A model generated the notes under the pieces. It was not told the origin of the DNA. It did no database searches and saw only the letters and a program-made list of their open reading frames with translations. Made by a program: the position numbers and the translations under genes. Positions 3,516 to 50,225 of a stretch of DNA of 60,566 nucleotides are shown piece by piece (position 1 is the stretch's first letter; every line of letters begins with the position of its first letter). This stretch comes from Acidobacteria bacterium 13_1_40CM_65_14 (GTDB lineage: Bacteria; Acidobacteriota; Vicinamibacteria; Vicinamibacterales; CAVVIG01), in contig MNEX01000162.1 of the NCBI GenBank assembly GCA_001917905.1, positions 1-60,566 on the forward strand, read 5' to 3'.

Positions 3516-4541
3516 CTACAAGGTCCCTCGACCCGTTCCTTCCTGCAATTCTGCAACCCTGCCGTCCTGCAACGCGATCGCTCTGTCGATCTTCTCGATG
3601 AACAGTTTCTGAAGCGCGTCGATGCCGCCGCGGACCGTGCAGCCGGCGGCGTTCTTGTGGCCGCCGCCGCCGAATTCCTTCGCCACCGCGCCAATGTCGA
3701 TGTCGCCCTTCGAGCGCATGCTGACACGGTACTCATCGCCTTCGATCTGCTTGAAGAACACGACCGCTTCAATCTCTTTCACCGTGAGCGGCAGATTGAT
3801 GAGGCCTTCGGTGTCCTCGTACGTGCCGCCGGCCTCGCGCGCCATCTCGTGATCGACGTAGACGATCGCGATGCGTCCCGTCGGGTCGAGCTGCATCGCG
3901 CTCAGCACCGCGCCGAACAGCTTCAGCCGGCCCATGTTGTTGCTGTCGTACACATTGCGCGCGACGAGCACGGGATCGACGCCGGCCTCGAGGCACTCAC
4001 GGCAGATGTCGAACGTGCGCGGCGAGATGCTCGAGTAATGAAACGAGCCGGTGTCGGTGAGAATCGCGAGGTAGATGTGCGTCGCGATGTCGGTGGTCAG
4101 CGGGACGCCGAGCGCGCGCACGAGCTCGAACACCATCTCGGCGCACGCCGCCGCGCTCGCGTCGAACCAGTTGATCTGCCCGTAGTTCGCGTTCCCGGGA
4201 TGATGATCGATGTTGATCACGAAAAAGCGGTCGAGGCCCTCGACGCCGGTGCGCCCCAGATCGCCGCACTCCATGATGATGGCCGCGTCGAAGTCGCCGT
4301 CGACGCGCGGGGCGATGCGGATGTCCGGCACGCCCGGAAACTGCATCAGCGGCCCGGGCGCCGGGTCGGCGTTCACGGCGACGACGTCTTTGCCGAGCGC
4401 GTGCAGCGCATAGGCCATCGCCAGCTGCGAGCCGATCGAGTCGCCGTCGGGCCGGGAGTGCGAGGACAGCACGAAGCGCTGGCGCGCGCGGATCGCCTCG
4501 ACGATCTGCTGAATCGGTTCAGTGTTGTTCGTCATCATCAC
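3516..4541 (-). CDS. nrnA: DHH/DHHA1 phosphoesterase (NrnA-like oligoribonuclease / pAp phosphatase)
   Basis: DHH motif (INIDHHPGN) and DHHA1 motif (FGGGGHKNAAG) are present, with SHSRPDGDSIGS near the N-terminus. It lies between rbfA and truB, as in many bacteria. Confidence 0.88.
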   Translation of the reverse strand: MMMTNNTEPIQQIVEAIRARQRFVLSSHSRPDGDSIGSQLAMAYALHALGKDVVAVNADPAPGPLMQFPGVPDIRIAPRVDGDFDAAIIMECGDLGRTGVEGLDRFFVINIDHHPGNANYGQINWFDASAAACAEMVFELVRALGVPLTTDIATHIYLAILTDTGSFHYSSISPRTFDICRECLEAGVDPVLVARNVYDSNNMGRLKLFGAVLSAMQLDPTGRIAIVYVDHEMAREAGGTYEDTEGLINLPLTVKEIEAVVFFKQIEGDEYRVSMRSKGDIDIGAVAKEFGGGGHKNAAGCTVRGGIDALQKLFIEKIDRAIALQDGRVAELQEGTGRGTL

Positions 4542-4980
4542 TGCTCGCGGGGCCCCACCCCCGCTCGCTCTCGCTCGCGCCTTCGCGCTCGCTCGGGCCG
4601 CTGGCGCTATCTGGCGGAGCAGGCGCCGTGTGGAGCTCGTTGAGCAGCTGCTCGATGCGATCCTGGCCGGCGATCGACTCGTCGTAGATGAATGTCAGCT
4701 CCGGCACGCGCCGCAGCCGCAGGCGCGACCCGATCCGCCGGCGGAGAAACGGCGCAGCGCGCTCGAGCGCGCGCCCCGAGTTGCGGCGCGTCTTCGCTTC
4801 GTCTCCCGTGGGGCCGAGCGCCGTGTAGAACACGCGCGCGAGCTGCAGATCCGGGCTCACCTGGACGCGCGTCAGCGTGACGAACCCGATGCCGGGATCG
4901 TGAACCTCGCGCGCGAGCAGATTCGCGAGCTCGCCTCGAATCTGATCCGCCACACGATCGGGTCTGGAACCTTGGGACAT
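4519..4980 (-). CDS. rbfA: ribosome-binding factor A with a repeat-derived C-terminal tail
   Basis: MSQGSRPDRVADQIRGELANLLAREVHDPGIGFVTLTRVQVSPDLQLARVFY.. matches the RbfA family. The C-terminal ..SASGPSEREGASESERGWGPASSDDDEQH is encoded by the GGGGCCCC-containing repeat at 4544-4608. Confidence 0.92.
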   Translation of the reverse strand: MSQGSRPDRVADQIRGELANLLAREVHDPGIGFVTLTRVQVSPDLQLARVFYTALGPTGDEAKTRRNSGRALERAAPFLRRRIGSRLRLRRVPELTFIYDESIAGQDRIEQLLNELHTAPAPPDSASGPSEREGASESERGWGPASSDDDEQH

Positions 4981-11607: not shown

Positions 11608-11620
11608 GTTTGACAAAAAG

Positions 11621-11707
11621 CTCTCCACCACAGAGGACACGGTGGACACGGAGGTAAAGACCCGTACGTTTTGCCCCCCGTGTCCTCCGTGCCCCCCGTG
11701 GTGGAGA
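11621..11707. repeat. A-family hairpin repeat (CTCTCCACCACAGAGGACACGGAGGA ... TCCTCCGTGTCCCCCGTGGTGGAG), copy A1
   Basis: ctctccaccacagaggacacggtggacacggaggtaaagacccgtacgttttgccccccgtgtcctccgtgccccccgtggtggagat. It lies between the asnS stop and the rimO start. Confidence 0.92.
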
Positions 11708-11716
11708 TGTTAGCGC

Positions 11717-13737: not shown

Positions 13738-13822
13738 CTCTCCACCACAGAGGACACGGGACACGGAGGAAAAGCCATGTACGGTTTGACCTCTGCGTCC
13801 TCCGTGTCCCCGGTGGCGGCGA
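13738..13822. repeat. A-family hairpin repeat, copy A2
   Basis: cctctccaccacagaggacacgggacacggaggaaaagccatgtacggtttgacctctgcgtcctccgtgtccccggtggcggcgag. It ends 3 nt before the amgK-like stop codon. Confidence 0.9.
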
Positions 13823-13824
13823 GC

Positions 13825-14865
13825 TTACTGGAGCTCTTCGATGTGCGAGGCGAGCAGATCGTGGAGGCGCGCGAAGCGCGAGTACTTCTCGAGGTTGGAG
13901 CGCGCGTAGCGCAGCGTGCGCGGCATGTACTGAATGTAGACCGGGTTCGCGCGCGTCATGGTCTGGTAGCCGAACGTCCCGAGCGCCTTCAGGTTGCGCT
14001 GCAGCGCCATGAGATCGAATCGGCGCCGGAACTGGTCGGCGCCCCCGTCGGGCGTGCAGCGCGTCAGCGCGAGAAAGTACGCGACGAGCTCGTCGAGCTC
14101 GCGATCGGTGATGTCCACGTACGAGTCGCGCAGCAGCGACACCAGATCGTAGGTGTCCGGTCCCATCCGCGCGTCCTGGAAGTCGATGATGTACAGGCTG
14201 CCATCGCTGAGCATCAGGTTGCGACTGTGATAATCACGGTGGCACAGCACCCGCGGCTCGGTCGCGAGCTCCCGGACGATCGACGCCCATTCATCCGCCA
14301 ACGTGGATCGTTCGGCGGGCGAGAGCGTGACGCCGCGATAGCCGCCGACGAAGTGCTTGGTGAAGAACTCGAGCTCCCACGTGAGCTTGTCGACGTCGAA
14401 TGCACTCTTGTACGGCAGGTAGCGATCCGATTCCAGTTCCTCGCCGCGCCGCTGCAGCAACTCGATGAGCGTGACCGCCTGGCGATACAGCGCCGCATGT
14501 TCGGTTGCCGAGGAGGCTCCCAGGTGAGCCTGCAGCGTGACGTCGCCGAGATCCTGGAGCGCCAGAATGCCGAGCGCATCGGAGTGTCCGAGCACGGCAG
14601 GCACGGGCAGCCCGATTCGCTGCATCAGCTCCGCGACGTTCGCGAAGGGAAGATCGGCGAAGGTGATCGACCCGGCGTGCAGCGCCAGGACGATTGACGG
14701 TTCCTCGTCTGGAATGATCCGGAAGTATTTGCGATCGGATGCGTCGCCGGTCAGCGGCACGACGCGCGCGTGCCGCTCGGCGAGCCCGCTCTCGTGCAGA
14801 TAGCGATCGATCCGATCGCGCACGTCGAGGCGTTGACTCGCGGCGGCCGTCCGCTCAGTCAACAT
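13825..14865 (-). CDS. amgK: aminoglycoside-phosphotransferase-fold kinase, AmgK-like (N-acetylmuramate/GlcNAc anomeric kinase)
   Basis: APH-fold motifs HRDYHSRNLM and IIDFQDA are present, and it lies next to a MurU-like nucleotidyltransferase. The specific substrate is inferred from that pairing. Confidence 0.7.
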   Translation of the reverse strand: MLTERTAAASQRLDVRDRIDRYLHESGLAERHARVVPLTGDASDRKYFRIIPDEEPSIVLALHAGSITFADLPFANVAELMQRIGLPVPAVLGHSDALGILALQDLGDVTLQAHLGASSATEHAALYRQAVTLIELLQRRGEELESDRYLPYKSAFDVDKLTWELEFFTKHFVGGYRGVTLSPAERSTLADEWASIVRELATEPRVLCHRDYHSRNLMLSDGSLYIIDFQDARMGPDTYDLVSLLRDSYVDITDRELDELVAYFLALTRCTPDGGADQFRRRFDLMALQRNLKALGTFGYQTMTRANPVYIQYMPRTLRYARSNLEKYSRFARLHDLLASHIEELQ

Positions 14866-15040
14866 TCTGCCGCGAATCCGGCCCCAGCGCCTGCCACCGC
14901 TCGCTCGTTCGCTCGCGGCGTTGACTCGCGGCGGCCGTCCGCTCAGTCAACATTCTGCCGCGGATCCGGCCCCAGCGCCTGCCACCGCTCGCTCTTCGCT
15001 CGCGGCGTTGACTCGCGGCGGCTGTCCGCTCAGTCGACTC
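14832..15040. repeat. 87-88-bp tandem direct repeat, about 2.4 copies, spanning the murU-like 3' end, the spacer and the amgK-like 5' end
   Basis: Copies start with gttgactcgcggcggc at 14832, 14920 and 15007. Copies 1 and 2 are near-identical. Each unit begins with the palindrome gttgactcgcggcggccgtccgctcagtcaac. Confidence 0.93.
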
Positions 15041-16040
15041 TCAGTGGCGATCCGTCGTCGCCTTGACTGATGACGCAGCGACTGTGTGTTGCCCCGGCGG
15101 CGACCGTGGCGCCATCGGTCACGATGCACTCCTCAATCACCGCGTCCGCGCCAACCTCCACATCGTCCCACAGAATCGAGTCGACGATGCGGGCCGACGG
15201 GTGAATGCGGGAACGCAACCCTACAGTTGAGCCGGCGCGGTCTTCTCGCGTCGCGAATGCATGAGATGTGCGCCGGTAATCCTCGGTCGTGCCGACGTCG
15301 AAGAACTCCGCGCGACAGACCACTCCGCGAACCGAGCCTGGACTTGCCGCGATGAGCGCGTCGTACACGCCGCCGATGGAGCTTGCCGGCTCGCCCGGCG
15401 TCAGCGGAGCGAACACCGATGCGTGCGCGACCTGCACGCCGATGAAGTGATACGAGCCTTTCGCAGACGGACCACGTCGCACGAAGCCCGTGACTCGTCG
15501 CTCGTCGTCCAGCATCACGCCGCCGTACCGCTCGAATTCTTCGTTGGGCACGAGCGCGAGCGTGACGAGCGCGCCCGAATCGGCATGCGTCCGGCCAATC
15601 GCCGTGAGATCGACGTCGGTCAGCGTGTCGCCGTTGATGATGAAAAACGTGTCGGTCGCAACGAGCGGCAGCGCGAGTCGAGGACCGCCGGCGGTTCCGA
15701 GCACGCGCGGTTGTTCCCACGAGTAGCGCACGCGCGCCGCGAGATCGCTGCCGTCGCCGACGACGGCCGTCAGCGTTTCAGGAAGGTGGTGCACGTTGAG
15801 AACGAGGTCGGTGACGCCGCGCGAGACGAGCCAGCGAATGATCCGCCGAATCATCGGCTGCCCGGCGACCGGGATCGCCGGTTTCGCGCGGACGTCGGTC
15901 AGCGGCCGGAGCCGTGTGCCGAGGCCGGCCGTGAGCACGAGCGCGTGATCGATCGGCGCCAGCTTAGACTCCGATTGGACGGCCGCGGACGTGCAACACG
16001 CGCCGCAAGAATTCGTACATCGTGAAACATTCGAACGCAA
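15030..16040 (-). CDS. murU: nucleotidyltransferase, MurU-like (sugar-1-phosphate uridylyl/nucleotidyl transferase) with a C-terminal left-handed beta-helix region
   Basis: LTAGLGTRLRPLT signature, ..INGDTLTDVDL.., and a hexapeptide-like C-terminus. The start is uncertain, because ATG 16040 overlaps the upstream gene by 77 nt. Confidence 0.7.
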   Translation of the reverse strand: MRSNVSRCTNSCGACCTSAAVQSESKLAPIDHALVLTAGLGTRLRPLTDVRAKPAIPVAGQPMIRRIIRWLVSRGVTDLVLNVHHLPETLTAVVGDGSDLAARVRYSWEQPRVLGTAGGPRLALPLVATDTFFIINGDTLTDVDLTAIGRTHADSGALVTLALVPNEEFERYGGVMLDDERRVTGFVRRGPSAKGSYHFIGVQVAHASVFAPLTPGEPASSIGGVYDALIAASPGSVRGVVCRAEFFDVGTTEDYRRTSHAFATREDRAGSTVGLRSRIHPSARIVDSILWDDVEVGADAVIEECIVTDGATVAAGATHSRCVISQGDDGSPLRVD

Positions 16041-16814
16041 ACGTGGGAAAGCCGAGATAGCCGGGAACGGGCATCTCGAAGACCTTCAGGTGTTCCATGA
16101 TCGGCACGCTGTAATGCCACTTCGCGTGCGCCCAGTAGTTCCAGAATTCCCATAGCAGGCCGCAGAGCACACCGCTCAGCGCGAGATTGATCGTGCGGTC
16201 GAATCGGCCAGCGCGCCACTCGGCGAGCAGCGACTCCCCACCGAGCCGCGCGTTGATCGGATCGAGCAGGAAGATGAACCCGAGCCAGACGGGCGCCGCC
16301 ATGTAGCGCGCAGCCTGTGGCGAGACGAGAATGGATGGGCCGGATCGGCAAGACCATCGTGCCCATCCCGACCCTCCCATCCCGCCTGTCCCGCCTGTCC
16401 TGCCTGTCCCGCCCCTCCTGCCTGTCCCGCCCGTCCTGCCCTGAGGACCGCGAACAATTCCGCGCCTTCGAAGATCGCCGGTGAGATTGTTGCGAACGAC
16501 CACGCGTAGCCGAAATGCCGGAGCCAGAAGTTCTCGGGCAATCCCGTGTAGTGCCAGTTCCGTATATAGAGGTTGAACCACTCGAACACGAGCCACAGCG
16601 GAATCGACGCGAGCGCGAGCAGCGCGAACTCGCCTGGTGCGGATCGAATCCACGAGTCGCCGCGCGCACGATAGACGATCGAATCGGCGAAGATGATGAA
16701 CCCGGTCCACGCAATCGGCGTGTTCCACGACCAGAACGGCTCGATGTGGAGCAGCGTGGCCGTCTCGGAGACGACCATGATCGCCAAGCCGATCCATGGG
16801 AGAAACCTCTCCAC
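15964..16814 (-). pseudogene. multi-pass membrane protein of unknown family with internal two-fold duplication; frame changes inside a repeat insertion
   Basis: The N-half (frame of track ORF 16176..16913) reads ..PLWLVFEWFNLYIRNWHYTGLPENFW..ISPAIFEGAELFAVLR. The C-half (frame of 15964..16797) reads ..MAAPVWLGFIFLLDPINARL..GLLWEFWNYWAHAKWHYSVP... The two halves resemble each other and are joined through the 9-mer array at 16363-16443 in different frames. Confidence 0.6.
16363..16443. repeat. 9-nt tandem repeat (CCCGCCTGT-like)n, about 9 units
   Basis: cccgcctgtcccgcctgtcctgcctgtcccgcccctcctgcctgtcccgcccgtcctgccc. On the coding strand it reads as collagen-like GQAGRAGQAGGAGQAGQAG. Confidence 0.9.
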
Positions 16815-16821
16815 GATTGAA

Positions 16822-16901
16822 CTCTCCACCACAGAGGACACGGAGGAAGAATCTCGTACGTTTTTCCCCGCGTGTCCTTCGTGGCCCCCGTGGTGATGAG
16901 G
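16822..16901. repeat. A-family hairpin repeat, copy A3
   Basis: ctctccaccacagaggacacggaggaagaatctcgtacgtttttccccgcgtgtccttcgtggcccccgtggtgatgagg. Its loop shares CGTACGTTTT with A1 and A2. Confidence 0.9.
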
Positions 16902-16909
16902 TTCAATGT

Positions 16910-18379
16910 TCATGTAACCCGCATCTTGTACGAGCAGCCACGGAGCGCCGGCGTGCCGACGCCTTTGCCGAAGATCAGAATCTTGTGTGTGCTCCCAAGA
17001 CCCCCAGGCATGATCAGCGTCTTGAGATTGCGGATTGCGGATTGCGGATTGGGGGTTGATTGCGGATTGCGGATTTCAGGGAACAGACCCATCAAAAAGT
17101 ACGTCTGGTCCAGGAATCCGAGCGTCTGCAATCCTTCTTCCTCCGCCGCTTGGCGCACGCTCGTGAAGTCGACGTGCGCGGTGATGTCCTGCTCTCCGGG
17201 CGACTGCAGCCAAGGCGGTGCCGCTGCAGATGATTTTCTATCGCTCGTGGGGCCCCACCCCCACTCGGGCACCCCAGCGCGCACAGACCGCGCGCCGGGG
17301 ACCCCGCCGCTGCGGCTCGACTCGCGACGCTCGCTCGCCGCGGCCGCAGGCGCTTCCGGTCCCGCGCTGCGATGGCCGCTGTAGCTCGTGAGCGTTCCGG
17401 CTGCGTGCGTCGGCGAGTACAGCTCGCGCGCTTCGTGACCGTAGTCAATCAGGATGATGAACCCGCGCCGCAGACGCCGGGCCGCGTCGCGGATCCACTC
17501 GACGGCGCGAAGATTGATCTCCACGCGCCACCCTGCTTCGAGCTCGATACCGAGGCGCGCCAGATATTCCGCAAGCTTTGGCGTGGACGGGGGCCCTTCG
17601 ATTACGGTGAGGCCATCATCATTCTTGACATCTCGCGGGGCCCCACCCTCTCGCACCGCGCCGGGGCCCCACCCCCGGCGCTGTTGCTCGGCGCCAGCGC
17701 CTCGCAACGGCTCAAGGCTGTCGCTCGCCGACGCCCTCGCGCCGTGGCGCTCGGGCGTATCCAGAACAGAGCGTCGCTGACTGATGACGTACGTCTCGCG
17801 CAGGCCCTCTTCACGCATCACCACCTGATGCACGGGCAATGCGTCGAGGAGCTCGTTGGCGATGACCACACCGTCGAACGAACAGGGGAATGACGCGTCG
17901 GAAGAGGCGAGTCGTTCGGCGACATCGGCGAGCGTCGCCCGCTGCGCCGCACGCGCCCCGGCGCTGGCTTCGACGAGATGGAGCTGGATGGTGTCGTAGA
18001 ACGCGCGATCGCGTTCCCGCGCGGCGCGGAGGATGTCGGCGCTGAGCCGGCCGTTGCCGGCGCCGGCCTCGACTAGGTCGAATGCAACCGCGGAGCGCGC
18101 AGAGCGCGCTGAGTTGTGATGGATTCTCTCGGCGTTCTCAGCGACCTCTGCGGTTGCTTGGAGGATGCTCGCGATCTCGGCGAGCTGGATTTCGAGGAGC
18201 TCGCCGAACAGCGGACCGACATCGACGCTGGTAAAAAAATCGCCCGCGCGGCCAGATCGCTGGTCCGCGCGGGCGTAGTAGCCGAGCTCGGGATGGTAGA
18301 GCGCGAGGTCCATGAACGCAGCCACGGTCATCGGGCCGCGTTCACGAATCAAATCTGCAATCTGCAATCCAATCTGCAA
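16910..18379 (-). CDS. MidA-like (DUF185) SAM-dependent methyltransferase carrying several repeat-encoded insertions
   Basis: ..LIRERGPMTVAAFMDLALYHPELGYYA.., FFTSVDVGPLFGELL, LVEAGAGNGRLSADIL and GFIILIDYGH are present. At 489 aa it is about 100 aa longer than I remember for this family. The start is a TTG inside a heptamer array. Confidence 0.8.
   Translation of the reverse strand: MQIGLQIADLIRERGPMTVAAFMDLALYHPELGYYARADQRSGRAGDFFTSVDVGPLFGELLEIQLAEIASILQATAEVAENAERIHHNSARSARSAVAFDLVEAGAGNGRLSADILRAARERDRAFYDTIQLHLVEASAGARAAQRATLADVAERLASSDASFPCSFDGVVIANELLDALPVHQVVMREEGLRETYVISQRRSVLDTPERHGARASASDSLEPLRGAGAEQQRRGWGPGAVREGGAPRDVKNDDGLTVIEGPPSTPKLAEYLARLGIELEAGWRVEINLRAVEWIRDAARRLRRGFIILIDYGHEARELYSPTHAAGTLTSYSGHRSAGPEAPAAAASERRESSRSGGVPGARSVRAGVPEWGWGPTSDRKSSAAAPPWLQSPGEQDITAHVDFTSVRQAAEEEGLQTLGFLDQTYFLMGLFPEIRNPQSTPNPQSAIRNLKTLIMPGGLGSTHKILIFGKGVGTPALRGCSYKMRVT
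17036..17086. repeat. 7-nt tandem repeat (GATTGCG)n inside the 3' part of the MidA-like gene
   Basis: gattgcggattgcggattgcggattgggggttgattgcggattgcggattt. It encodes ..EIRNPQSTPNPQSAIRN.. in frame. Confidence 0.92.
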
Positions 18380-18403
18380 TCTGAAATCTGCAATCTGAAA
18401 TCT
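18347..18403. repeat. 7-nt tandem repeat (AATCTGC)n over the 5' end of the MidA-like gene
   Basis: aatcaaatctgcaatctgcaatccaatctgcaatctgaaatctgcaatctgaaatct. The unit is the reverse complement of the 17036-17086 unit apart from one purine (GCAGATT versus GCGGATT). Confidence 0.92.
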
Positions 18404-18404
18404 C

Positions 18405-19982
18405 CTATTCCTTCTTCACCGGGACGAAGATCTCCTGCTCGCCGCGCCACACACGGAGCTGCGCGAGATGGTTCGTCTGCACGCGATCGAGCTCGCGCTT
18501 CGCGTCCGCGGCGCTCGACACGGCCCGGCCGTTCACCGACAGGATGACGTCAGTCTGCCGCAGCGCGCCCGCCGCCGGACCATCCGGATCCACGTCCGTG
18601 ATGACCGCGCCCGTCTGACCGGACGGCATGCGCAGCCGCCGTGCCATGCTCGGCGTCACGTTGTCGAGCGTCAAGCCGAACCCGGTCGGCTCGTGCTGGT
18701 CCGTCTGGTTGTCGCCGCGATCGTTGTTGCCGCGTCCGCCGCGCGTCTGCTGCTGCTCCGCCTCGAGATCCAGTTCCTCGACGGTGACATGCATCGTTTT
18801 CTCCTGCCTGTTGCGCAGGATCTTGATCGGCACCGAGGTGCCCGGCTTGGTCGCGATCACCATCTTCACGAGCTCGTCCTGGGTCGCAATGGGCCGCCCG
18901 TTGTACTCGGTGATGACGTCGCCCGGCTCGATGCCCGCCTTCGCTGCCGGCCCGCCGGCCGGCACCTGAGCGACGAGCGCGCCTTTGCGATCCTTCAGTC
19001 CGAAGTCTTCGAACGCCTCACGCGGGACCGGCAGCACCGAGACGCCAATTCGCCCGCGTGTGATCTTGCCGACCCGCAACTGCGGCAGCAGCTCGCGAAC
19101 GGTGTTGATCGGCACGGCGAAGCCGATCCCGATGTTCCCCTCGCTGCGGGCGTTCGTGATGATGGCGGTGTTCATGCCGATCACTTCACCGCGGACATTG
19201 AGCAGCGGACCGCCGGAGTTGCCCGGGTTGATTGCGGCGTCGGTCTGAATCATGTCGTTGTTGCGATTGGGGACCGTCGTGAACGGCCTGCCGGTTGCGC
19301 TGACGACGCCGACGGTGACGGTGTGCGCGTAGCCGAATGGGTTGCCGATGGCCATCACCCAGTCGCCCGGCGCAATCTGCGACGAGTCCCCGAACTTCGC
19401 TTCGGGCAGCGCGCCTTTCGGTTTGTCGACGAGCTCGATCAGCGCGCTGTCGGTGAGCTGGTCGTGTCCGATCAATTTCGCGCTGTAAGGGGTGTCGTCA
19501 TCGCCGTAGAGGAACACCTCGATCTTGGTCGCCTCTTCCACGACGTGGTTGTTCGTGATGATGAACCCGTCCTTGCTGATGATGAAGCCGGTGCCGGCGG
19601 CCTGCGTTTTCGGTTCGCGCGGCTGGCGCCGTCCGCGGCCCTGGGGTTGATCGTCCTGCTGGCCGCCGCCGGGTCCGAAGAAGCGGCGGAACAAATCGTC
19701 CTGCGAGCCGCCGCCGCCGAAGAAATCGGTGAGCTCGTTGGCTTTCGCCTTCATCTCGGTCCGGATGTTGACCACCATCGGCGTCGATGCCTTGGCGATG
19801 TTGCGGAACGTGTCCGCGTTGACCGCCCCCGTGAGCGGCGCGCTGTTCATCGCCGGCACTGCGATCGTCTGGGCCGATGACGCCGGCGCCAGATCGAGAC
19901 GTGACGCGATGACCATGCCGACCGCCAGTGAGGCGACGATGGTCAGCAGGAAGTAGAAAAGCGTGGTCTTGCGGGTTGACAT
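18405..19982 (-). CDS. HtrA/DegP-family periplasmic serine protease with two PDZ domains
   Basis: TM/signal MSTRKTTLFYFLLTIVASLAVG, NNHVV (His), DSALIEL (Asp) and GNSGGPLLN (Ser), followed by two PDZ-like regions. The track start at 20012 adds 10 aa. Confidence 0.92.
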   Translation of the reverse strand: MSTRKTTLFYFLLTIVASLAVGMVIASRLDLAPASSAQTIAVPAMNSAPLTGAVNADTFRNIAKASTPMVVNIRTEMKAKANELTDFFGGGGSQDDLFRRFFGPGGGQQDDQPQGRGRRQPREPKTQAAGTGFIISKDGFIITNNHVVEEATKIEVFLYGDDDTPYSAKLIGHDQLTDSALIELVDKPKGALPEAKFGDSSQIAPGDWVMAIGNPFGYAHTVTVGVVSATGRPFTTVPNRNNDMIQTDAAINPGNSGGPLLNVRGEVIGMNTAIITNARSEGNIGIGFAVPINTVRELLPQLRVGKITRGRIGVSVLPVPREAFEDFGLKDRKGALVAQVPAGGPAAKAGIEPGDVITEYNGRPIATQDELVKMVIATKPGTSVPIKILRNRQEKTMHVTVEELDLEAEQQQTRGGRGNNDRGDNQTDQHEPTGFGLTLDNVTPSMARRLRMPSGQTGAVITDVDPDGPAAGALRQTDVILSVNGRAVSSAADAKRELDRVQTNHLAQLRVWRGEQEIFVPVKKE

Positions 19983-21396: not shown

Positions 21397-23502
21397 ATGA
21401 CAGAACGTGTACGACTTGCCGCGCTCCTCACGTTCCTCGCCGGGACGGCGCTCGTTGCCGGCCAGAATCCTCCGGCGTCCAGTCCGCCGCCGCCGCAGCC
21501 GCCGCCCGCTCCGAACCAGGGACCGACGTTCCGCGTCCGCGTCGACTACGTGGAAGTGGACATCGTGGTCACCGATCGTCAGGGCAACCTCGTCCGCGAT
21601 CTGAAGAAGGACGATTTCCAGGTCCTCGAGGACGGAAAAGCGCAGTCGATCAGCGCGTTTTCGCTCGTCGACATTCCCGTCGAGCGCGCGGATCGGCCGC
21701 TGTTCCAGCCGGATCCAATCGAACCGGATGTGAAGACGAACGAGCATCCGTTCGACGGCCGCATCTATGTGATGGTCATCGACGATTACCACACGAACTT
21801 CGGCCGGACGGCGCGCGTGAAAGGCGCCGCCAAGCAGTTCATCGAGCGGCGCCTGGGCGCCAATGATCTGATGGCCATCGTGCACACGGCCGGCGCGACG
21901 GCGGCGAACCAGGAATTCACGAGCAACAAGAAGCTGCTGCTCGGGGCGGTCGACAAGACGCAGGGCCGCAAGCTGAAGTCGTCGACCGCGAATCGGACCG
22001 AGGAGTACTACCGCACGCGCGATCTCCGCCAGTCAGGCGATCCGCTGAACGATCCCGAGGACGCGGAGCGCGCGTTCAATGCGCGGTCGACGCTCGACAC
22101 GCTCCGCAACGTGGCTGAATGGTTCTCGTCGGTCCGTGGGCGGCGCAAGACGATCCTCTTGGTCAGCGAAGGGATCGACTACGACATCCACGACATCATC
22201 GCGCAGACCGGGTCGAACCATATGGGCGCGTCGATGGTGCTCGACGCGACGCGCGACGCCATCGCCGCGGCCACGCGTGCCAACGTCTCGATCTACGGCA
22301 TCGATCCGCGCGGCCTGACGGATCTCGGCGACGAGTCGATTGAGATCGGGTCGTTCCCCGACGACACATCGCTCGGCATCGGCACCGGATCGCTCTACAA
22401 CGAGCTGCGGATGGCGCAGGACTCGCTGCGCGTGCTGTCGGAGGAAACCGGCGGCTTCGCCGTCGTGAACAAGAACGACTTCAGCACCGCCTACGATCGG
22501 ATCGTCAAGGACAACAGCTCGTACTACGTGCTCGCGTACTATCCACCCGACGCACGGCCGGGACGCGTTCACAAGATCGATGTGCGCGTCACGCGTCCGG
22601 GACTCACCGTGCGCGCCCGCAAGGCGCACGTCACGCCGAAGGACGTGAAGGCGGCGCCGGTCAACGCCAAGGACGTCCGGACGCCGGAGATCCGCGACGC
22701 GCTCGACAGCCCGCTGCCGTTGAGCGGTCTGACGATGCACGTGTTCGCGGCGCCGTTCAAGGGCGCGGCGCCCAACGCGTCGGTCCTGTTCGGCGTCGAG
22801 ATGCGCGGCAAGGATCTGCGGCTGGCCAATGCCGACCGTTTGCAGCTGTCGTACTACGCCATCGACGCGCAGGGGAAGGTGCGCGGCGGCAACACTGACG
22901 CGATCACGATGAACCTGCGGCCGGACACCAAGGCGCGTATCGCGGAACAGGGCGTGCGGATGCTGAATCGAATCGACCTGCCGCCGGGCCGGTATCAGCT
23001 CCGGTTCGCCGCGCACGATTCGGGAGGTGGCGCCGTCGGCTCGGTGCTCTACGACCTCGAGGTGCCCGACTTCGTGAAGTCGCCGATCAGCATGAGCGGC
23101 ATCGCGCTCACCTCGCAGGCCGCCGCGGTCCGGCCGACCGTGCGTCCCGACGAGCAGCTGCGCGCCGTACTGCCGGCGCCGCCGGTCGCGCTGCGGACGT
23201 TCCCGCAGGACGACGAGGTCGCGCTGTTTGCCGAAATCTACGACAACTCCGCGTCGACGCCGCACAAAGTCGACATCACGTCGACGGTGACGACCGACGA
23301 GGGCAAGGTGCTGTTCAAGACCGAAGAAGAACGTGATTCGAGTGACCTTGGGGGCAAGACCGGCGGCTACGGCTATACGGCAAAAATTCCGATGAAGGAT
23401 CTCGCGCCGGGCCCGTACGTGCTGACCGTGTCCGCGCGGTCGCGCGTCAGCCCGAATCCGACGGTTCAACGACAGGTCCGGATTAACGTCACTGGACGCT
23501 GA
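21397..23502 (+). CDS. VWFA-related acidobacterial-type secreted protein (TIGR03436-like)
   Basis: Signal peptide, Pro-rich linker, then FRVRVDYVEVDIVVTDRQGNLVRDLKKDDFQVLEDGKAQSISAF, the characteristic N-terminal module. A VWA-like core follows. Confidence 0.85.
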   Translation: MTERVRLAALLTFLAGTALVAGQNPPASSPPPPQPPPAPNQGPTFRVRVDYVEVDIVVTDRQGNLVRDLKKDDFQVLEDGKAQSISAFSLVDIPVERADRPLFQPDPIEPDVKTNEHPFDGRIYVMVIDDYHTNFGRTARVKGAAKQFIERRLGANDLMAIVHTAGATAANQEFTSNKKLLLGAVDKTQGRKLKSSTANRTEEYYRTRDLRQSGDPLNDPEDAERAFNARSTLDTLRNVAEWFSSVRGRRKTILLVSEGIDYDIHDIIAQTGSNHMGASMVLDATRDAIAAATRANVSIYGIDPRGLTDLGDESIEIGSFPDDTSLGIGTGSLYNELRMAQDSLRVLSEETGGFAVVNKNDFSTAYDRIVKDNSSYYVLAYYPPDARPGRVHKIDVRVTRPGLTVRARKAHVTPKDVKAAPVNAKDVRTPEIRDALDSPLPLSGLTMHVFAAPFKGAAPNASVLFGVEMRGKDLRLANADRLQLSYYAIDAQGKVRGGNTDAITMNLRPDTKARIAEQGVRMLNRIDLPPGRYQLRFAAHDSGGGAVGSVLYDLEVPDFVKSPISMSGIALTSQAAAVRPTVRPDEQLRAVLPAPPVALRTFPQDDEVALFAEIYDNSASTPHKVDITSTVTTDEGKVLFKTEEERDSSDLGGKTGGYGYTAKIPMKDLAPGPYVLTVSARSRVSPNPTVQRQVRINVTGR

Positions 23503-23690
23503 GCGCCTGCGGCCTCGCCGAGCCGCGGCCGTGTGAAGCCGCGGCGAGGTGTCAGCGATAGATCACGGCGAGAGTTGGCGACAGCAGCGCCGGGGGTGGC
23601 CCCCGGCGCCAGTGAAAAAGCGCCTGCGGCCACACGTCGCCGAGGACCTGAAAATCCGAGGCGACGTGTCAGCGAAAGGTCGCGGCGGGG
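23503..23690. repeat. two copies of a roughly 70-nt structured unit about 117 nt apart, flanking a perfect GC hairpin
   Basis: Units begin gcgcctgcggcc at 23503 and 23620 and both end ..gtgtcagcga(t/a)ag. Each contains its own stem (cctcgccg..cggcgagg; cgtcgcc..ggcgacg). The central hairpin is gcgccggggg-tgg-cccccggcgc at 23587-23609. Confidence 0.75.
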
Positions 23691-23715
23691 GGCGACAACG
23701 ACAACGACGGCCACG

Positions 23716-27980: not shown

Positions 27981-29005
27981 CGTTCAGAGCAGGCGCCGAC
28001 GAGCGCAGCGAATGTGGAGAGATCGATGTTGCCGCCGGACACGACGGCGACCACTTTGCCGGCGCCCGCGCGTCCGCTGAGTGCAGCGGCGATCGCGCAG
28101 CCGGCGGCGCCTTCCGCGATGATGCGTGCGCGCTCGGCGGCGAGCTTCATCGCGCGCGCGACCTCGTCGAGCGTGACGACGATCGATCCAGACAACTGCG
28201 AGAGCAGCGGCCACATGCTGGCCAGGACCGATTTCCCGCCGGCGCCGTCGACAAACGACGCCTTCCAATTGTCGAAGTACATGGGGCGTCCCGCAGCGAG
28301 GGAGACCGAGAGCGGCGCCGCCGTTTCCGGTTCGGCGGCGTAGACGCGCGTGTCCGGCTTCAGCTCGCGCACCGCCGCCGCGATCCCCGAGAGCAATCCG
28401 CCGCCGCCGAGCGGTGCGACGATGGCGTCGACGCCGGGGAGATCTTCGAGAATCTCCAGTCCGGCCGTCCCGTTGCCCGCGATGAAGCGATCGTCATCGA
28501 AGGGATGCACGAAGTGTCCGCGCATGCGATCCGACGCATGCGACTCGACGGTCTTCCACGCGTCGTCGTAGGTCGTCCGGACGATCGTCGCGCCGAGCCG
28601 CTCGATCGCGTCCACCTTGGTTTGCGGCGCGGTGTCCATCACCATCACCGAGCAGGCCGCGCCGACCTTGCGCGCAGCGTAGGCGACGCCTTGCGCCGCG
28701 TTGCCCGCGCTGACCGTCCATACGCCGTCCTTCAGCTCGTCGCGCGTGAGCTGGCGCACGACGTTGTAGGCGCCGCGGATCTTGAACGAGCCGATCGGCT
28801 GCAGCACCTCGAGCTTCAGGTACACCTCGGGACCGGCGGGGAGCTCGATTCGAATCAGCGGCGTTCGGACGGCGGCGCCGTACACAGCCGTGGCGGCGTC
28901 TCGGATGGCGGCGAGCGGGATGTGGCGGCCGGAGATCGTCGTCGGCAAGACGGTCGATGGTAGTCGCCTCAGCTCAGGCGGGTCAATGCTCCGCGCCCGC
29001 CTCAT
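27977..29005 (-). CDS. PLP-dependent serine/threonine dehydratase family enzyme
   Basis: LQPIGSFKIRGAYN (PLP Lys) and GGGGLLSG. Its start overlaps the glgP stop region (ATGA-type junction). Confidence 0.85.
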   Translation of the reverse strand: MRRARSIDPPELRRLPSTVLPTTISGRHIPLAAIRDAATAVYGAAVRTPLIRIELPAGPEVYLKLEVLQPIGSFKIRGAYNVVRQLTRDELKDGVWTVSAGNAAQGVAYAARKVGAACSVMVMDTAPQTKVDAIERLGATIVRTTYDDAWKTVESHASDRMRGHFVHPFDDDRFIAGNGTAGLEILEDLPGVDAIVAPLGGGGLLSGIAAAVRELKPDTRVYAAEPETAAPLSVSLAAGRPMYFDNWKASFVDGAGGKSVLASMWPLLSQLSGSIVVTLDEVARAMKLAAERARIIAEGAAGCAIAAALSGRAGAGKVVAVVSGGNIDLSTFAALVGACSER

Positions 29006-29012
29006 CCGTAAT

Positions 29013-29107
29013 GGTCATTGGTCATTGGTCATTGGTCATTGGTCGTTGGTCGTTGGTCGTTGGTCATTGGTCATTGGTCATTGGTCATTGGTCATTAGTC
29101 GTTGGTC
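29013..29107. repeat. 7-nt microsatellite (GGTCATT/GGTCGTT), 13 units plus a partial unit
   Basis: Counted unit by unit from 29013. It contains the stop and last 7 codons of the 29085-29531 gene and ends 8 nt before the start codon of the dehydratase gene (29005). Confidence 0.97.
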
Positions 29108-29531
29108 GGAAGCGCTCTTCGATGAACGCGATCAGTTCATCGAGTGACCCGTAGCCGAAGGTCGTGCACGCGCCGTCGCAGTTGCCGACGATGAGGCGCG
29201 AGATGGCGTGGCGGCGAGTGCGGTCGTAGAGGAGCACCACCTGCTGACCGGTGACCGGCGAGCGACCGAGCACATAACCGACCTCGAAGCCCACGCCGTA
29301 TGTGGATCCCGACGCTTCGGCGACGAGCACGTCACATTGCGAGAGCCAGTCGAGATCGCGACGATAGACGTCCTCCTCGGTCAGCTTCGACTCCGCCTCG
29401 TTGACGTCGGCGGCGAGCAGGTGCGTCGTCAACACCCGATGACCGAGCTCGTGCAGGCGCTCCGAGATCGCGCGACCTGCGGCCACGCCGCCGCGATCGC
29501 CGCGAACCGTGCACGCGAGATAGATCGTCAC
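29085..29531 (-). CDS. nucleoside 2-deoxyribosyltransferase-like / DNPH1(Rcl)-like protein
   Basis: MTIYLACTVRGDRGG.., ..DLDWLSQCDVLVAEASGSTYGVGFEVGY.. matches the family pattern as I remember it. Confidence 0.65.
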   Translation of the reverse strand: MTIYLACTVRGDRGGVAAGRAISERLHELGHRVLTTHLLAADVNEAESKLTEEDVYRRDLDWLSQCDVLVAEASGSTYGVGFEVGYVLGRSPVTGQQVVLLYDRTRRHAISRLIVGNCDGACTTFGYGSLDELIAFIEERFRPTTNDQ

Positions 29532-30844: not shown

Positions 30845-33334
30845 GTGAGGCGCACCCGGGTCTTCCGTCCGTACATCATCTGGTCCGCCGTTTTGCTGGT
30901 TGCCGTCACCACGACGGCGCTCATTCGCGCCCAGTACATCCCTCCGCCGCGGACGGCCGCGCCCGGGACGATGAGTGACGGCTCGACGCTATTACCCAAC
31001 GGATGGCGGCTCGGCCCTGTCGGGAAACATCTTCCCCTCAGCACGCTGCCGCTCAACGCCGTCGTCTCGCCCGATGGCCGCCATGCGGTCATCACGAACA
31101 ACGGTCTCGCGAAACCGTCGCTGAACGTCGTCGACATCAACGCGTGGACGATCAAGACGACGACGCCCGTGGACCACACATGGCTCGGCCTCGCGTTTCA
31201 TCCCGACGGCACGAAGCTGTACGCGAGCGGCGCGGGGCAGAACAACGTCCAGGAATTCACGTACGCCGACGGCGTCGTGACGCGCGTGCGCACCTTCGCG
31301 CTCCCGGCGTACACCGGCGACACGATGGTCGGCGGTCTGGCGGTCAGCCCGAACGGGCGCGCGCTGTTCGCCACGCGCGTCTTCGCGATGACGATCTCGC
31401 GGATCGATCTCACGACCGGTCAGGTGACGCATTCGGCGTCGCTTCCCGCCGAACCGTATTCGTGCGTGCTGTCGCCCGACGGACGGATGCTGTACGTCTC
31501 GCTGTGGGGCGGCGCGCGCGTGCGCGTGTACGACGCCGACTCGCTGTTCCTGCTCAACGAATGGGCGTCGGGCGAGCATCCGAATGCGATGGCGATCTCG
31601 AGCGACGGCAAGCGGCTGTTCGTCGCGTGCGCGAGCAGCGCCGCGGTCTGGACGTACGACACGTTCGCCGGTGAACCGATCGAGCAGATCTCGACGAGCC
31701 TCTATCCGCAGGCGCCGCCGACGGCGACGCCCAATTCTGTCGCGCTGTCGCCCGACGGCCGCACGCTGATCGCCGCCAACGCCGACAACAACGCAGTCGC
31801 GGTGGTCGACGTGAGCAACCCGGCGCTGAGCTTCGTCGAAGGGTTCATTCCGACCGGCTGGTATCCGACGTCCGCGGTGTTCACGAAAGACGGCAAGCAG
31901 ATTCTGATTCTGAACGGCAAGGGCCTGACGCCCGCGCCGAACATGACCAACAGCGGCATGGAGCGCCGCATGCTCGGTGCGGTGTCGCTCGTCGCCACGC
32001 CCGATCGCGTGACGCTCGCCGACTACACGCGCCGCGTGATGTCGCTGTCGCCCTACACCGATGCGATTCGGCTGCATCCGAACGTGCCGATCGGATCGCC
32101 GATTCCGCGCACCGTCGGCGGCGCCTCGCCGATCAAGCACGTCTTCTACGTCATTCGCGAGAACCGCACCTACGATCAGGTGCTCGGCGATCTGACGGAA
32201 GGGAACGGCGATCCCAAGCTGACCCTCTTCGGCCGCGAGATCACGCCGAACGCGCACGCGCTGGCGCAGAACTTCGTGGTGTTCGACAACTTCTTCGTCG
32301 ATGCCGACGTCAGCTACAACGGCCACTCGTATTCGACGGCGGCGTACGCCACCGATGTCGTCGAGAAGATGTGGCAGGCGATGTACGCGCGTGGCGGCAT
32401 TCCGTATCTGTCCGAAGGCGGCGGCCTGCTGCGCAACCCGTTCGGCAACATCTCGGCGCCGCCGGGCGGCTACATCTGGGACTACGCGCGCCGCAGCGAC
32501 GTCAGCGTCCGCAGCTACGGCGAGTTCGTCCATCACACGTATCGCGGCCCCGGCGCGAACCCCGACGTCATCGCCGTCGAGGCGGTGCCCGGTCTGAAGG
32601 GACTCGTCGCGCCGGCCTTCGCCGGCTGGGATCTCGAGATCACCGACAACAAGCGCATCGACAACTGGCAGCAGGAGTTCCGGCAGTTCGAGCGGGACGG
32701 CACGCTGCCGCAGCTGTCGATCATCCGGCTGCCCAACGATCACACGGCCGGCACGAGGCCGGGCGCTCCGACACCGCGCGCGATGATGGCGGACAACGAC
32801 GTCGCGCTCGGCCGGCTGGTGGAGACGATCTCGAACAGCGTCTACTGGAAAGACGCCGCGATCTTCGCCGTCGAGGACGATGCGCAGGCCGGACCGGATC
32901 ATGTGGACTCGCACCGCTCGGTGCTGCTCGTCGCGAGTCCGTTCGCCAAGCGCATCAGCGTCGATCACACGTTCTACTCGACGGCGAGCGTGCTGCGGAC
33001 GATCGAGCTCATCCTGGGTCTCACGCCGATGAGCCAGTACGACGCGGCGGCGACGCCGATGCACGCGGCGTTCACCGGGACGAGCAACCTCGCCGCGTAT
33101 CGCCGATTGGATGCGCGCGTATCGCTCGACGAGAAGAATCCGACCAACGCGTTCGGCGCGATCGCGTCGCTGCAGATGAACTTCTCGGAAGCCGATCGGA
33201 CGCCCGAGGTGCTGCTGAACGAGATCATCTGGCGCTCGGTGAAGGGCGCCCATTCGCCGATGCCGCCGCCCCGGCGGAGTCTCTTCATCACGCCGGCGTC
33301 GCGCGCCGCGGATGATGACGACGATGAGCGCTAG
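30845..33334 (+). CDS. secreted fusion protein: YncE/YVTN-type beta-propeller plus phosphoesterase (phospholipase C / AcpA-like) domain
   Basis: Repeated ..SPDGR..Y(A/V).. propeller blades, then IKHVFYVIRENRTYDQVLGD, NFFVDADVSYNGH and IIRLPNDHTAG. A GTG at 30845 gives a signal-peptide start; the track ORF begins at 30728. Confidence 0.8.
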   Translation: MRRTRVFRPYIIWSAVLLVAVTTTALIRAQYIPPPRTAAPGTMSDGSTLLPNGWRLGPVGKHLPLSTLPLNAVVSPDGRHAVITNNGLAKPSLNVVDINAWTIKTTTPVDHTWLGLAFHPDGTKLYASGAGQNNVQEFTYADGVVTRVRTFALPAYTGDTMVGGLAVSPNGRALFATRVFAMTISRIDLTTGQVTHSASLPAEPYSCVLSPDGRMLYVSLWGGARVRVYDADSLFLLNEWASGEHPNAMAISSDGKRLFVACASSAAVWTYDTFAGEPIEQISTSLYPQAPPTATPNSVALSPDGRTLIAANADNNAVAVVDVSNPALSFVEGFIPTGWYPTSAVFTKDGKQILILNGKGLTPAPNMTNSGMERRMLGAVSLVATPDRVTLADYTRRVMSLSPYTDAIRLHPNVPIGSPIPRTVGGASPIKHVFYVIRENRTYDQVLGDLTEGNGDPKLTLFGREITPNAHALAQNFVVFDNFFVDADVSYNGHSYSTAAYATDVVEKMWQAMYARGGIPYLSEGGGLLRNPFGNISAPPGGYIWDYARRSDVSVRSYGEFVHHTYRGPGANPDVIAVEAVPGLKGLVAPAFAGWDLEITDNKRIDNWQQEFRQFERDGTLPQLSIIRLPNDHTAGTRPGAPTPRAMMADNDVALGRLVETISNSVYWKDAAIFAVEDDAQAGPDHVDSHRSVLLVASPFAKRISVDHTFYSTASVLRTIELILGLTPMSQYDAAATPMHAAFTGTSNLAAYRRLDARVSLDEKNPTNAFGAIASLQMNFSEADRTPEVLLNEIIWRSVKGAHSPMPPPRRSLFITPASRAADDDDDER

Positions 33335-33339
33335 ACGCT

Positions 33340-33435
33340 GAATCGGGTAATTGGATAATCGGGTAATCTGGTAATTGGATTGCTCGATTGACCAATCCGC
33401 TTACCCGATCACCCGATTACCCGATTACTCGATTC
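33340..33435. repeat. hairpin with (GGGTAATYG)-type repeat arms
   Basis: gaatcgggtaattggataatcgggtaatctggtaattggattg-ctcgattga-ccaatccgcttacccgatcacccgattacccgattactcgattc. Same family as 58197-58312. There is a half-copy at about 36570-36600. Confidence 0.9.
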
Positions 33436-36543: not shown

Positions 36544-36598
36544 CGACGATCAACGCCGAGCACAATCAATGACCCGATTACCAGATTCCCCGATTCGG

Positions 36599-39684: not shown

Positions 39685-39714
39685 AGAAAAGCGCCACGAG
39701 TCCGGTTCAAATTA

Positions 39715-39810
39715 CCTCGCCACCACGGGGGACACGGAGGATAGGAGGTTCGAACCTGTTCAAAGCGGGATTTTTCCTCCGCGTCCCCCGTGTCCTCCGC
39801 GGTGGAGAGC
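39715..39810. repeat. A-family hairpin repeat, copy A4 (left composite inverted repeat, part 1)
   Basis: cctcgccaccacgggggacacggaggataggaggttcgaacctgttcaaagcgggatttttcctccgcgtcccccgtgtcctccgcggtggagagc. It closely matches the reverse complement of A5. Confidence 0.9.
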
Positions 39811-39830
39811 TTCGATTCTGCAACATGCGC

Positions 39831-48093: not shown

Positions 48094-48104
48094 TCGTCTT
48101 GCTC

Positions 48105-50185: not shown

Positions 50186-50225
50186 CGTCGCCTGATGAGC
50201 TGAGCAAGCCTCGTACCGTGTCACG

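Follow-up and report, generated by a model that had tools for sequence, protein, structure and literature searches.

Short structured repeats that lie between bacterial genes, and sometimes within them, have been described in several groups. Rickettsia palindromic elements (RPEs) occur between genes and also in-frame in unrelated housekeeping genes, where they add a peptide and the protein is kept (PMC10969869, PMC3733652). Mycobacterial interspersed repetitive units (MIRUs) are direct, often tandem units between co-directional operon genes that abut or overlap the neighbouring stop and start codons; insertion at start codons, with a short internal open reading frame (ORF), has been proposed for them (PMC12548453). 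BOX and other modular repeats (ERIC, Correia/NEMIS) are located next to genes and are co-transcribed with them, and fusions with ORFs have been reported (PMC10969869). Here we analyze a GC-rich hairpin repeat in a 60,566-nt stretch of DNA from Acidobacteria bacterium 13_1_40CM_65_14 (contig MNEX01000162.1; the whole stretch is called the window), where it is found in the methyltransferase gene midA, at the end of rbfA, and between genes near 23.5 kb. The host belongs to the Vicinamibacterales (Acidobacteria subgroup 6), a group that ranks with the most abundant bacteria of soils and for which nearly all knowledge comes from metagenome-assembled genomes (MAGs). We consider it highly probable that the core found here forms the 3' hairpin of an interspersed repeat, modular and GC-rich, that belongs to Vicinamibacterales, usually fills the spacer between two genes, and is sometimes carried in-frame within genes.

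A core sequence repeated in different reading frames

The string GGGGCCCCACCC, with at most one mismatch, is present four times in the window (4549, 17249, 17637, and 17663), always on the + strand, as compared with 0.23 matches expected; none of 100 dinucleotide shuffles reached four. The shorter GGGGCCCC by itself was observed four times in the window against an expectation of 0.76. The + strand reads CTCG[C/T]GGGGCCCCACCC at 4544, 17244, and 17632 and GCGCCGGGGCCCCACCCCCGGCGC at 17655. The host genes are on the - strand, and their coding strand accordingly reads GG(G)TGGGGCCCC(G/A)CGAG; all copies in the window are in the sense orientation relative to the host or the downstream gene. Chance or base composition as the cause of the shared strings was ruled out by the shuffles together with the census of species genomes described below.

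A first reading of the window from its letters (the sequence-only reading) had located the core at these four sites and given its translations, and every coordinate proved correct, as did the peptides ERGWGPAS, EWGWGPTS, RRGWGPGA, and REGGAPRD when rbfA and midA were translated. It had also noted that one core is used in two frames within midA. Indeed, one copy in the first midA insert is read as GWGP and the other as GGAP, because 26 nt, a distance not divisible by three, separate the two cores. The intergenic hairpin at 23587-23609 is perfect, as had been described, with a 10-bp stem (GCGCCGGGGG-TGG-CCCCCGGCGC); as compared with the reverse complement of 17655-17678 (GCGCCGGGGGTGGGGCCCCGGCGC), its centre is one base shorter and contains one substitution. 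When the inserts were searched against the window by BLAST, only weak extra similarity was obtained (best E 7e-5), and the family became evident only with copies from other genomes. These copies show that the core makes up only the 3' hairpin of an element that is longer and modular.

Family census and host range

The 17-mer GGGTGGGGCCCCRCGAG was scanned over 185,579 species genomes (one genome per bacterial or archaeal species), giving at least 131 sites at at least 119 loci. Conserved flanks (...GCGAGCGG / core / CA(G/T)T(G/A)A(G/T)AAA...) surround the core in 114-117 of the matches listed; the flanks of about 14 other listed sites, from Actinomycetota, Prevotella, an archaeon, and others, are unrelated, and these sites resemble chance matches. 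The sites of the family are distributed over at least 62 assemblies, of which 60 by our count are labelled Acidobacteria, Acidobacteriota, Vicinamibacterales, or Vicinamibacteria. Several genomes contain at least 4-6 exact-core sites each among the matches listed, and the rate of an exact core by chance is about 0.03 per genome by our composition estimate. Over-representation of the core, which the sequence-only reading had anticipated, is thus the signature of a family present in at least 62 species-level genomes, nearly all of them Vicinamibacterales, and situated mostly between genes. Two other labels were seen among the listed hosts, a Candidatus Cybelea MAG (L022, a 3.8-kb contig) and Betaproteobacteria MAG252 (L025, L093); these members reflect either mis-binning, mislabelling, or a wider host range.

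No Rfam 15 family reached its gathering score in the window. At E<=1, eight element-bearing loci gave only tRNA and sub-threshold hairpin matches, none of which was at the listed core position. A published description of the family was not found for Vicinamibacter, Luteitalea, or Acidobacteria repeats, and the family is apparently undescribed in the literature.

Anatomy of the element and its covarying fold

The element measures about 75-160 nt, with ~75-100 nt being typical and composite or tandem forms longer, and has a G+C content of ~75-80%. Its order, 5' to 3', is a 5' box, a helix H1, the 3' hairpin (H2), and an A-rich tail. The 5' box is AGCGCCTGCGGC, written also AGCGCCUGCGGC, and (A)GCGCCTGCGGC is located upstream of the core in 74 of 114 sites among the matches listed; the box-to-core distance has a sharp peak at 49 nt, with other classes at 50-51, 58, and 70 nt and some longer composites. 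The 77-nt class A consensus reads AGCGCCTGCGGCCCGAGCG(A/C)GGCGCGAAGTCGCCG(A/C)GCGAGAGCGAGCGGGGGTGGGGCCCCGCGAGCATTGAGAAA. H1, which was derived by hand, extends from C14-G41 to G24-C31, and H2 has the stem CGAGCGGGG / CCCCGCGAG closed by the loop GUGGGG. In both helices CGAG is placed opposite CGAG, forming C-G, G.A, A.G, and G-C, that is, tandem G.A pairs between Watson-Crick pairs. H1 optionally encloses an extra covarying inner hairpin with a GAA or GCA loop; in class B (98 nt) this inner hairpin has 7 bp, and its stem sequence varies in nearly every copy with the pairing always kept. The tail, CA(G/U)UGA(G/U)AAA, usually contains a stop codon, and both the tail and the loop GUGGGG are near-invariant across the at least 62 genomes.

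Pairing was evaluated by counting two-sided changes in aligned copies and by sliding the pairing partner. Among 23 elements, two-sided changes were found in 8 of 11 H1 pairs, with none of 500 shuffles matching the observed values, and standard pairs occupied 76.7% of the cells versus 21-50% with a slid partner. A covariance model, R1, was built from 23 training sequences; 130 model matches (~100 loci) exhibited two-sided changes in 18 of 21 pairs (200 cells), with 77.5% of cells paired versus 26-52% in the slid controls. H1 subtypes of very different sequence (GCAGCC...GGCTGC and GCGTCC...GGACGC) share the same column pairing. The H2 pair adjoining the G.A step is C-G in 94 copies, U-A in 15, U-G in 3, and C-A in none, and the tandem-G.A step of H1 occurs as GA/GA (10) or as GC/GC (10), with no mixed case. 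The non-canonical cells are strongly asymmetric (G.A 455 versus C.U 10; G.U 33 versus A.C 18), which means that only the strand in the sense of the downstream gene folds well. RNAalifold recovered the 3' hairpin from alignment A3 and proposed a different 5' fold, because G.A pairs were unscored and subtypes were mixed in the alignment; that 5' fold was replaced by the hand-derived H1 as tested by the pair counts and slid controls.

A 6-codon ORF (GTG GGG CCC CRC GAG NNN stop) starts at the GTG of the loop; in 73 of 114 copies (64%) it ends at the stop of the tail, a T(G/A)A whose position is constant, and in 18 of these the next ATG follows at +3 nt. In the window, this feature is seen at 4549-4535. 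Of the sense frames, the two remaining ones (GWGP and GGAPR) lack stops for the most part, and both are used by the in-ORF copies of the window. Multiple units occur in direct tandem (L004, L010, L071, L086, L098, and L102; in the window, 23502/23619 and 17637/17663), and one pair of units on opposite strands was seen (L069).

The canonical copy fills the spacer between stop and start

Genomic context was obtained with our GC-frame gene caller, which reproduced the gene order of the window reasonably and was used in place of an earlier downstream-start test whose control rate was 34%. Among the matches listed, an intergenic copy and its downstream gene share a strand in 66 cases and lie on opposite strands in 18; when the genes on both sides are considered, 47 copies have two co-oriented neighbours and 12 have two antisense ones. 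A start codon is located within 25 nt of the core in 34 of the 66, with peaks at +9 and +10 that correspond to the ATG of the tail consensus AAATG. On the other side, upstream genes on the same strand end at or just before the 5' box, whose AG often completes a TAG codon or is abutted by TGA. Because upstream stops cluster at the 5' box and starts at the tail, the canonical copy is the entire spacer: stop, element, start.

Two in-frame insertions in midA

midA (16910..18379, - strand) encodes a 489-aa DUF185/Methyltransf_28 S-adenosylmethionine-dependent methyltransferase (Pfam PF02636, E 3e-56), as compared with 356-440 aa for its relatives. The closest homologue (P0001, 99% identity) is from 'Acidobacteria bacterium 13_1_40CM_4_65_8'. 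The structures PDB 1zkd and 4f3n align on either side of both inserts, leaving query residues 195-247 and 341-392 without a counterpart. The protein contains the strings ...QQRRGWGPGAVREGGAPRDVKND... and ...GVPEWGWGPTSDRK..., and the insert peptides include ...EWGWGPTSDRK... and ...RRGWGPGAVREGGAPR....

Insert 1 (17620..17775, - strand; 156 nt = 52 codons) is a composite that could be aligned to D-type elements of six other genomes. It begins with a D-type 5' module at 17722-17775 (GACGCTCTGTTCTGGATACGCC...; GACG(T/C)TCTGTTCTGGATACGCC...), which is followed on the same strand by a class-A-like unit at 17649-17721 (R1 44.3 bits, E 1e-7; outside the training set). The 9-bp hairpin read as GWGP (17655-17678) is within this unit, and a second 3' hairpin core with tail, read as GGAP, is located at 17632-17650. 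Only L001 (95.5% identity) and L002 share the insert; in other homologues this site, a hypervariable loop in an alignment of 25 MidA sequences, is occupied by a different insert or by none.

Insert 2 (17234..17353, - strand; 120 nt = 40 codons, APAAAASERRESSRSGGVPGARSVRAGVPEWGWGPTSDRK) is a 120-nt indel relative to L001. An exact 5' box at 17343-17354, an F-type 5' unit, and a class-A-like unit spanning 17234-17311 follow one another on the - strand; the last of these has its core at 17244-17262 and the tail GATAGAAAA (R1 38.6 bits, E 2e-6; outside the training set). Each half matches intergenic elements elsewhere: the F-type unit those of L081, L085, and L097, and the end unit a copy in L096. 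The encoded residues 343-382, with EWGWGPTS, are present in the window and P0001 only and are missing in the other 23 homologues, including P0002 (85% identity). L001, which is the P0002 locus, can be aligned along the entire midA, and the 120 nt that are extra in the window appear as a clean gap, which the aligner placed at 17240-17359 and which can be shifted by 6 nt. At this junction, the sole filled/empty pair, there is at most GAA or A-run microhomology.

Other repeats are also present in midA. A second hairpin repeat family (~75-95 nt, CTCTCCACCACAGAGGACACGGAGGA ... GTTTTnCCCCnCGTGTCCTCCGTG...GTGGTG) occupies several intergenic spacers of the window (11618-11711, 13738-13826, 16822-16903, 39714-39812, and 48044-48094), and an in-frame inverted repeat at 18105-18158 of midA, ATAEVAENAERIHHNSARSARSAV, resembles it. 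midA would therefore hold in-frame copies of more than one repeat family. The 18105-18158 version is 54 nt longer than that of L001, and the repeat is widespread yet variable among MidA relatives. Tandem repeats of 8 nt (AATCCGCA, GGGTAATC/GATTACCC) are found at 17020-17079 in the 3' part of midA and at 18380-18420, 33332-33451, 36570-36620, and 58188-58328; since three 8-nt units make 24 nt, they are read in-frame as NPQSAIRN inside midA, where L001 has unrelated sequence at the same spot.

A spacer copy is read through at the end of rbfA

rbfA (4519..4980, - strand) encodes 153 aa, of which residues 6-113 cover the whole Pfam RBFA profile. At its junction with the next gene is a canonical 75-nt element (4534..4608, - strand) that scores 74.5 bits over its full length with R1 (E 5e-14), of which it was a training sequence, and whose box and core were also recovered by a pattern search. 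It consists of the 5' box AGCGCCAGCGGC, H1, the 3' hairpin (4544-4567), and the tail CAGTGATGATG, which runs into the start of the next gene. That gene (3516..4541, - strand; a listed ORF of 341 aa) has its candidate starts, GTG 4541 and ATG 4538/4535, directly after the element tail. rbfA has no stop before the element; it continues in the GWGP frame and ends 20 nt inside the next gene, giving the C-terminus ...SESERGWGPASSDDDEQH. Residues ~125-153 (29 residues; SASGPSEREGASESERGWGPASSDDDEQH) are thereby encoded by the element and the short overlap with the next gene.

Among RbfA relatives, some are complete at ~119-129 aa and the others bear a similar tail, ...SESERGWGPAS..., in a patchy pattern. 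Two close homologues, P0122 and P0123, keep ...GPSER(E/D)GAS and lack the ESERGWGPAS part, so that the 3' hairpin module looks like a separate indel; in the window this module (4544-4575) is flanked by GCGAGC direct repeats. These observations support the conclusion that the RbfA tail is a read-through of an intercistronic copy and not an insertion into the gene body. The sequence-only reading had placed the core inside two housekeeping genes: this holds for midA, which contains true insertions, and has to be amended for rbfA. The orthologue comparison that it had proposed gave lineage-specific segments in both proteins, with the EWGWGPTS stretch of MidA missing in 23 of 24 homologues and the RbfA tail, beyond the end of the Pfam profile at aa 113, patchy. 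Its broader proposal of a DNA- or RNA-level element absorbed into ORFs is backed by this comparison together with the over-representation of the core among species genomes.

Copies inside ORFs of other genomes

Convincing in-ORF copies make up ~7-9% of the sampled sites. They are a minority, occur in either orientation, and are always in-frame and stop-free, at sites that are loops, interdomain linkers, or tails. In the MetH protein of L118, the copy is located between the homocysteine (Hcy) methyltransferase and pterin-binding domains and is antisense, reading SRGPTPAR. The Lhr helicase of L064 contains two tandem sense copies between its DEAD and Helicase_C domains, the ABC-F ATPase of L036 has a copy in the linker before the C-terminal domain, and a PSD-family protein (L109) also contains one; Pfam domains flank the insert on both sides in all four proteins. 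In a PMT_2 glycosyltransferase (L005), the core is at aa 190, after the sole catalytic-domain match (aa 65-155), and TPR repeats begin at ~aa 568. A membrane protein has an antisense copy at the same position in two species (L088, L097).

Diverged copies at 23.5 kb and other repeats in the window

A diverged family member is located between genes at 23502..23618 (+ strand). Its exact 5' box overlaps the upstream TGA stop and is followed by a long inner hairpin, the 3' hairpin, and the tail CAGTGAAAA; R1 matched it in two parts, 23502-23558 (23.7 bits, E 0.003) and 23571-23618 (E 0.62). A second unit follows in tandem at 23619..23705 (+ strand), with an exact 5' box and a 10-bp inner hairpin (R1 17.1 bits, E 0.078, a weak score); it lacks a recognisable GGGGCCCC hairpin and ends just before the ATG at 23716. 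The two units constitute the direct repeat D11, with a 117-nt period. An nhmmer search with the 43-nt 3' module missed the 23.5-kb copy, which the covariance model detected weakly. No further convincing family copies were found in the window, where the other R1 matches had E > 0.1.

Three 88-nt tandem units at 14820-15049 (+ strand) each start with AGCGCCTGCCAC, which resembles the family 5' box; they are antisense to both adjoining genes, gave no score with R1, and may represent a related family. Arrays of a 12-nt unit, GTCAGACTGACG, are located at 2971-3110 and 50202-50425, 47 kb apart and inverted, with 89-94% arm complementarity. A 7-nt tandem array (TGGTCAT) occupies an intergenic spacer at 28998-29122, and a 9-nt array at 16351-16440, CCTGTCCCG, is inside an ORF and is read as AGQAGQAGQAG. 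Inverted duplicates of ~150 nt with 100% identity (39831-39974 and 47841-48005) flank a 7.9-kb segment, and one of their frames reads YREYLSEEQRSRRGCIARRMQPDFHHGLL; a similar string is present in the N-terminal extension of the MidA homologue P0017, and the duplicates are therefore probably copies of another dispersed element.

Origin and possible roles of the element

The interpretation that we favour is that of an interspersed repeat whose copies would have spread by a duplicative process, either transposition or recombination. With a G+C content of ~75-80%, the element is nearly devoid of stop codons except in its tail; an insertion whose length is 3n, as with the 156 and 120 nt in midA, or the reading through of a spacer copy, as in rbfA, would therefore survive as extra peptide, adding 26-52 residues that are rich in Gly, Pro, Arg, Ala, Ser, and Glu and are probably disordered. 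Selection would then retain only those in-ORF cases that are harmless. The spacer copies are probably transcribed within operon mRNAs, where they would fold on the sense strand. Once folded, they could insulate or couple translation of the neighbouring cistrons or protect the mRNA; such a regulatory role is plausible by analogy and is the least certain step.

Several points weigh against this interpretation. Mobility is suggested by presence and absence only, namely by the 120-nt midA indel relative to L001 and the patchy RbfA tail. A clear target-site duplication was not found at the single filled/empty pair (midA insert 2/L001), and there are no terminal inverted repeats, the 5' box AGCGCCTGCGGC and the 3' end ...GCGAGCAGTGAGAAA not being reverse complements. 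No transposase gene was noted beside the copies, with no search aimed at transposases. Covariation by shared descent, or correction of DNA palindromes templated by the hairpin, can mimic selection on RNA, and alignment A4, which holds the 130 model matches, was itself fitted to the model. The GC-frame caller is crude, and where it places a copy 'inside' a gene close to the gene's end, a misjudged start codon is mostly the cause (e.g., the copy upstream of the ATP synthase beta gene, atpD, in L050). The family counts are of matches listed from the species collection, with the source genome itself outside the census, and a copy number of ~10^2 per genome is a guess by extrapolation. Translation of the inserts is suggested by preservation of frame and absence of stop codons. 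An AlphaFold2 model of MidA (25-sequence alignment) had a mean predicted local distance difference test score (pLDDT) of 50.8; the inserts were modelled without structure and below 50, as was much of the protein, and the model was too poor to identify them as surface loops and was not used.

The element might alternatively be mainly a functional cis-acting RNA module maintained by site-wise selection and not selfish DNA, with the in-ORF copies as by-products; we regard this as possible and as somewhat unlikely. Candidate roles would be a translation insulator or coupler, a protein-binding hairpin, or a signal for mRNA stabilisation or processing. Much of the evidence given above is of the kind expected for such a module: all helices covary, including switches between tandem G.A and Watson-Crick pairs, and the pairing works on the sense strand only; the copies are co-oriented with the downstream gene at a fixed position between stop and start; the loop GUGGGG and the tail hardly vary over the at least 62 genomes; and the 6-codon GTG ORF ends at the tail stop in 73 of 114 copies, 18 of which have an ATG 3 nt further on. 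Re-initiation is reported to be governed by stable structures right after stop codons (PMC7518266), and for MIRUs a coupling of the short internal ORF to the gene in front of which they are inserted has been proposed (PMC12548453). However, copies are found in both orientations inside ORFs and also between convergent or opposite-strand genes (12 sites with both neighbours antisense), and there are tandem arrays of variable number, exchangeable 5' modules, and recent indels. Proliferating DNA therefore fits better than site-specific regulators. In addition, no Rfam family matches the element.

A more specific version, which we offer as speculation and think rather improbable, is that the spacer copies are a lineage-wide RNA device in which the GUG-loop 6-codon ORF acts in 'ribosome-delivery' or insulation and the helices and GUGGGG loop are read by a dedicated factor. 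If this were true, Vicinamibacterales would control intra-operon translation by a mobile, self-propagating cassette, and the copies inserted in-frame into genes would represent an evolutionary spill-over from it that supplies proteins with new segments.

It is doubtful that the repeat is an element of the repetitive extragenic palindromic (REP)/REPIN type, moved as single-stranded DNA by a REP-associated tyrosine transposase (RAYT; an IS200/IS605-like Y1 transposase) that recognises the hairpin. Short length, GC-rich hairpin structure, and high copy number would all be in keeping with this, and tandem G.A pairs and GCGAAGC-type loops are stable in single-stranded DNA as well. The 5' end of the element provides upstream genes with TAG or TGA stops, and REPs carrying GTAG are reported to supply stops and are known inside ORFs too (PMC3733652). 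Yet neither end of the hairpin has a GTAG or CGTC tag, the units are single or in direct tandem and not inverted doublets, and the element is upstream of starts whereas REPs are reported mostly downstream of genes (PMC3733652); moreover, no transposase gene was seen next to the copies, though none was searched for. A protein-level GWGP motif, or low complexity in disordered high-GC regions, is hardly credible and was rejected: the inserts are indeed Gly/Pro/Arg/Ala-rich and in variable loops, and such strings arise easily in GC-rich genomes, but the same nucleotides occur in two frames of one gene, lack a coding role at 23.5 kb and at the majority of the ~115 listed sites, are read over the family in three sense frames as well as in antisense (SRGPTPAR), have nucleotide flanks conserved well past the peptide, and are not explained by chance in the shuffles.

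Comparison with known repeat families

For genome annotation, the interspersed repeat matters because it yields false N-terminal extensions, odd C-terminal tails, and length variation of housekeeping proteins. It could also serve as a marker of the lineage and provide insertion polymorphisms. Should the spacer copies work at the RNA level, they would offer a new example, easy to test, of a mobile element that brings its own solution for lying between two cistrons.

The sequence-only reading had named the RPEs as the closest precedent. The element works alike, in that in-frame insertion is tolerated at permissive sites of unrelated genes (midA twice, the RbfA tail, MetH, Lhr, ABC-F, PSD-family, and PMT_2), but it is not a member of the RPEs by sequence or host. 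Unlike RPEs, it is found in Acidobacteriota, is very GC-rich, and has hairpin ends CGAG...CGAG without the CGTC tag (the tag criterion of PMC3733652). It is mostly intergenic, with ~7-9% of sites in ORFs, whereas of the first RPE families nearly half were in ORFs, and its directional modular layout is tied to the stop-start spacer. The RPE phenomenon of selfish DNA tolerated in proteins is hereby extended to a free-living high-GC phylum, which bears on the origin of disordered loops and linkers.

MIRUs provide a parallel in layout. Like them, the element resides in GC-rich genomes, in co-directional spacers and in gene orientation, with its ends at the stop and start codons (window copies 4534-4608 and 23502-23705 included), and it contains a short internal ORF, here GTG plus the tail stop with 6 codons in 64% of copies. 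It differs from MIRUs in its strongly covarying hairpins with tandem G.A pairs and its several exchangeable 5' modules, and the distance from the stop to the next ATG is mostly +3 nt as compared with a -4 overlap; the likeness is one of layout, and sequence homology is not expected.

With REPs, bacterial interspersed mosaic elements (BIMEs), and REPINs, the family shares abundant GC-rich intergenic stem-loops that sometimes give stops or are found inside ORFs (PMC3733652). In contrast to REPs, which are imperfect palindromes of 20-40 nt ending in GTAG, its 24-nt 3' hairpin has no GTAG at either end (consensus of 110 copies), and in contrast to the three groups together it has no inverted-pair organisation, is located upstream of starts, and is longer and modular. 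It is BOX-like in being modular, with conserved 5' and 3' modules, variable internal modules, and a stable predicted fold; it differs from BOX, ERIC, and Correia/NEMIS in that the taxa and sequences are unrelated and terminal inverted repeats were not detected here, and their absence also distinguishes it from transposable elements of the miniature inverted-repeat kind (MITEs). We place the family among the small structured interspersed bacterial repeats that ORFs can co-opt; in Acidobacteriota it is new, and its tandem-G.A architecture is unusual.

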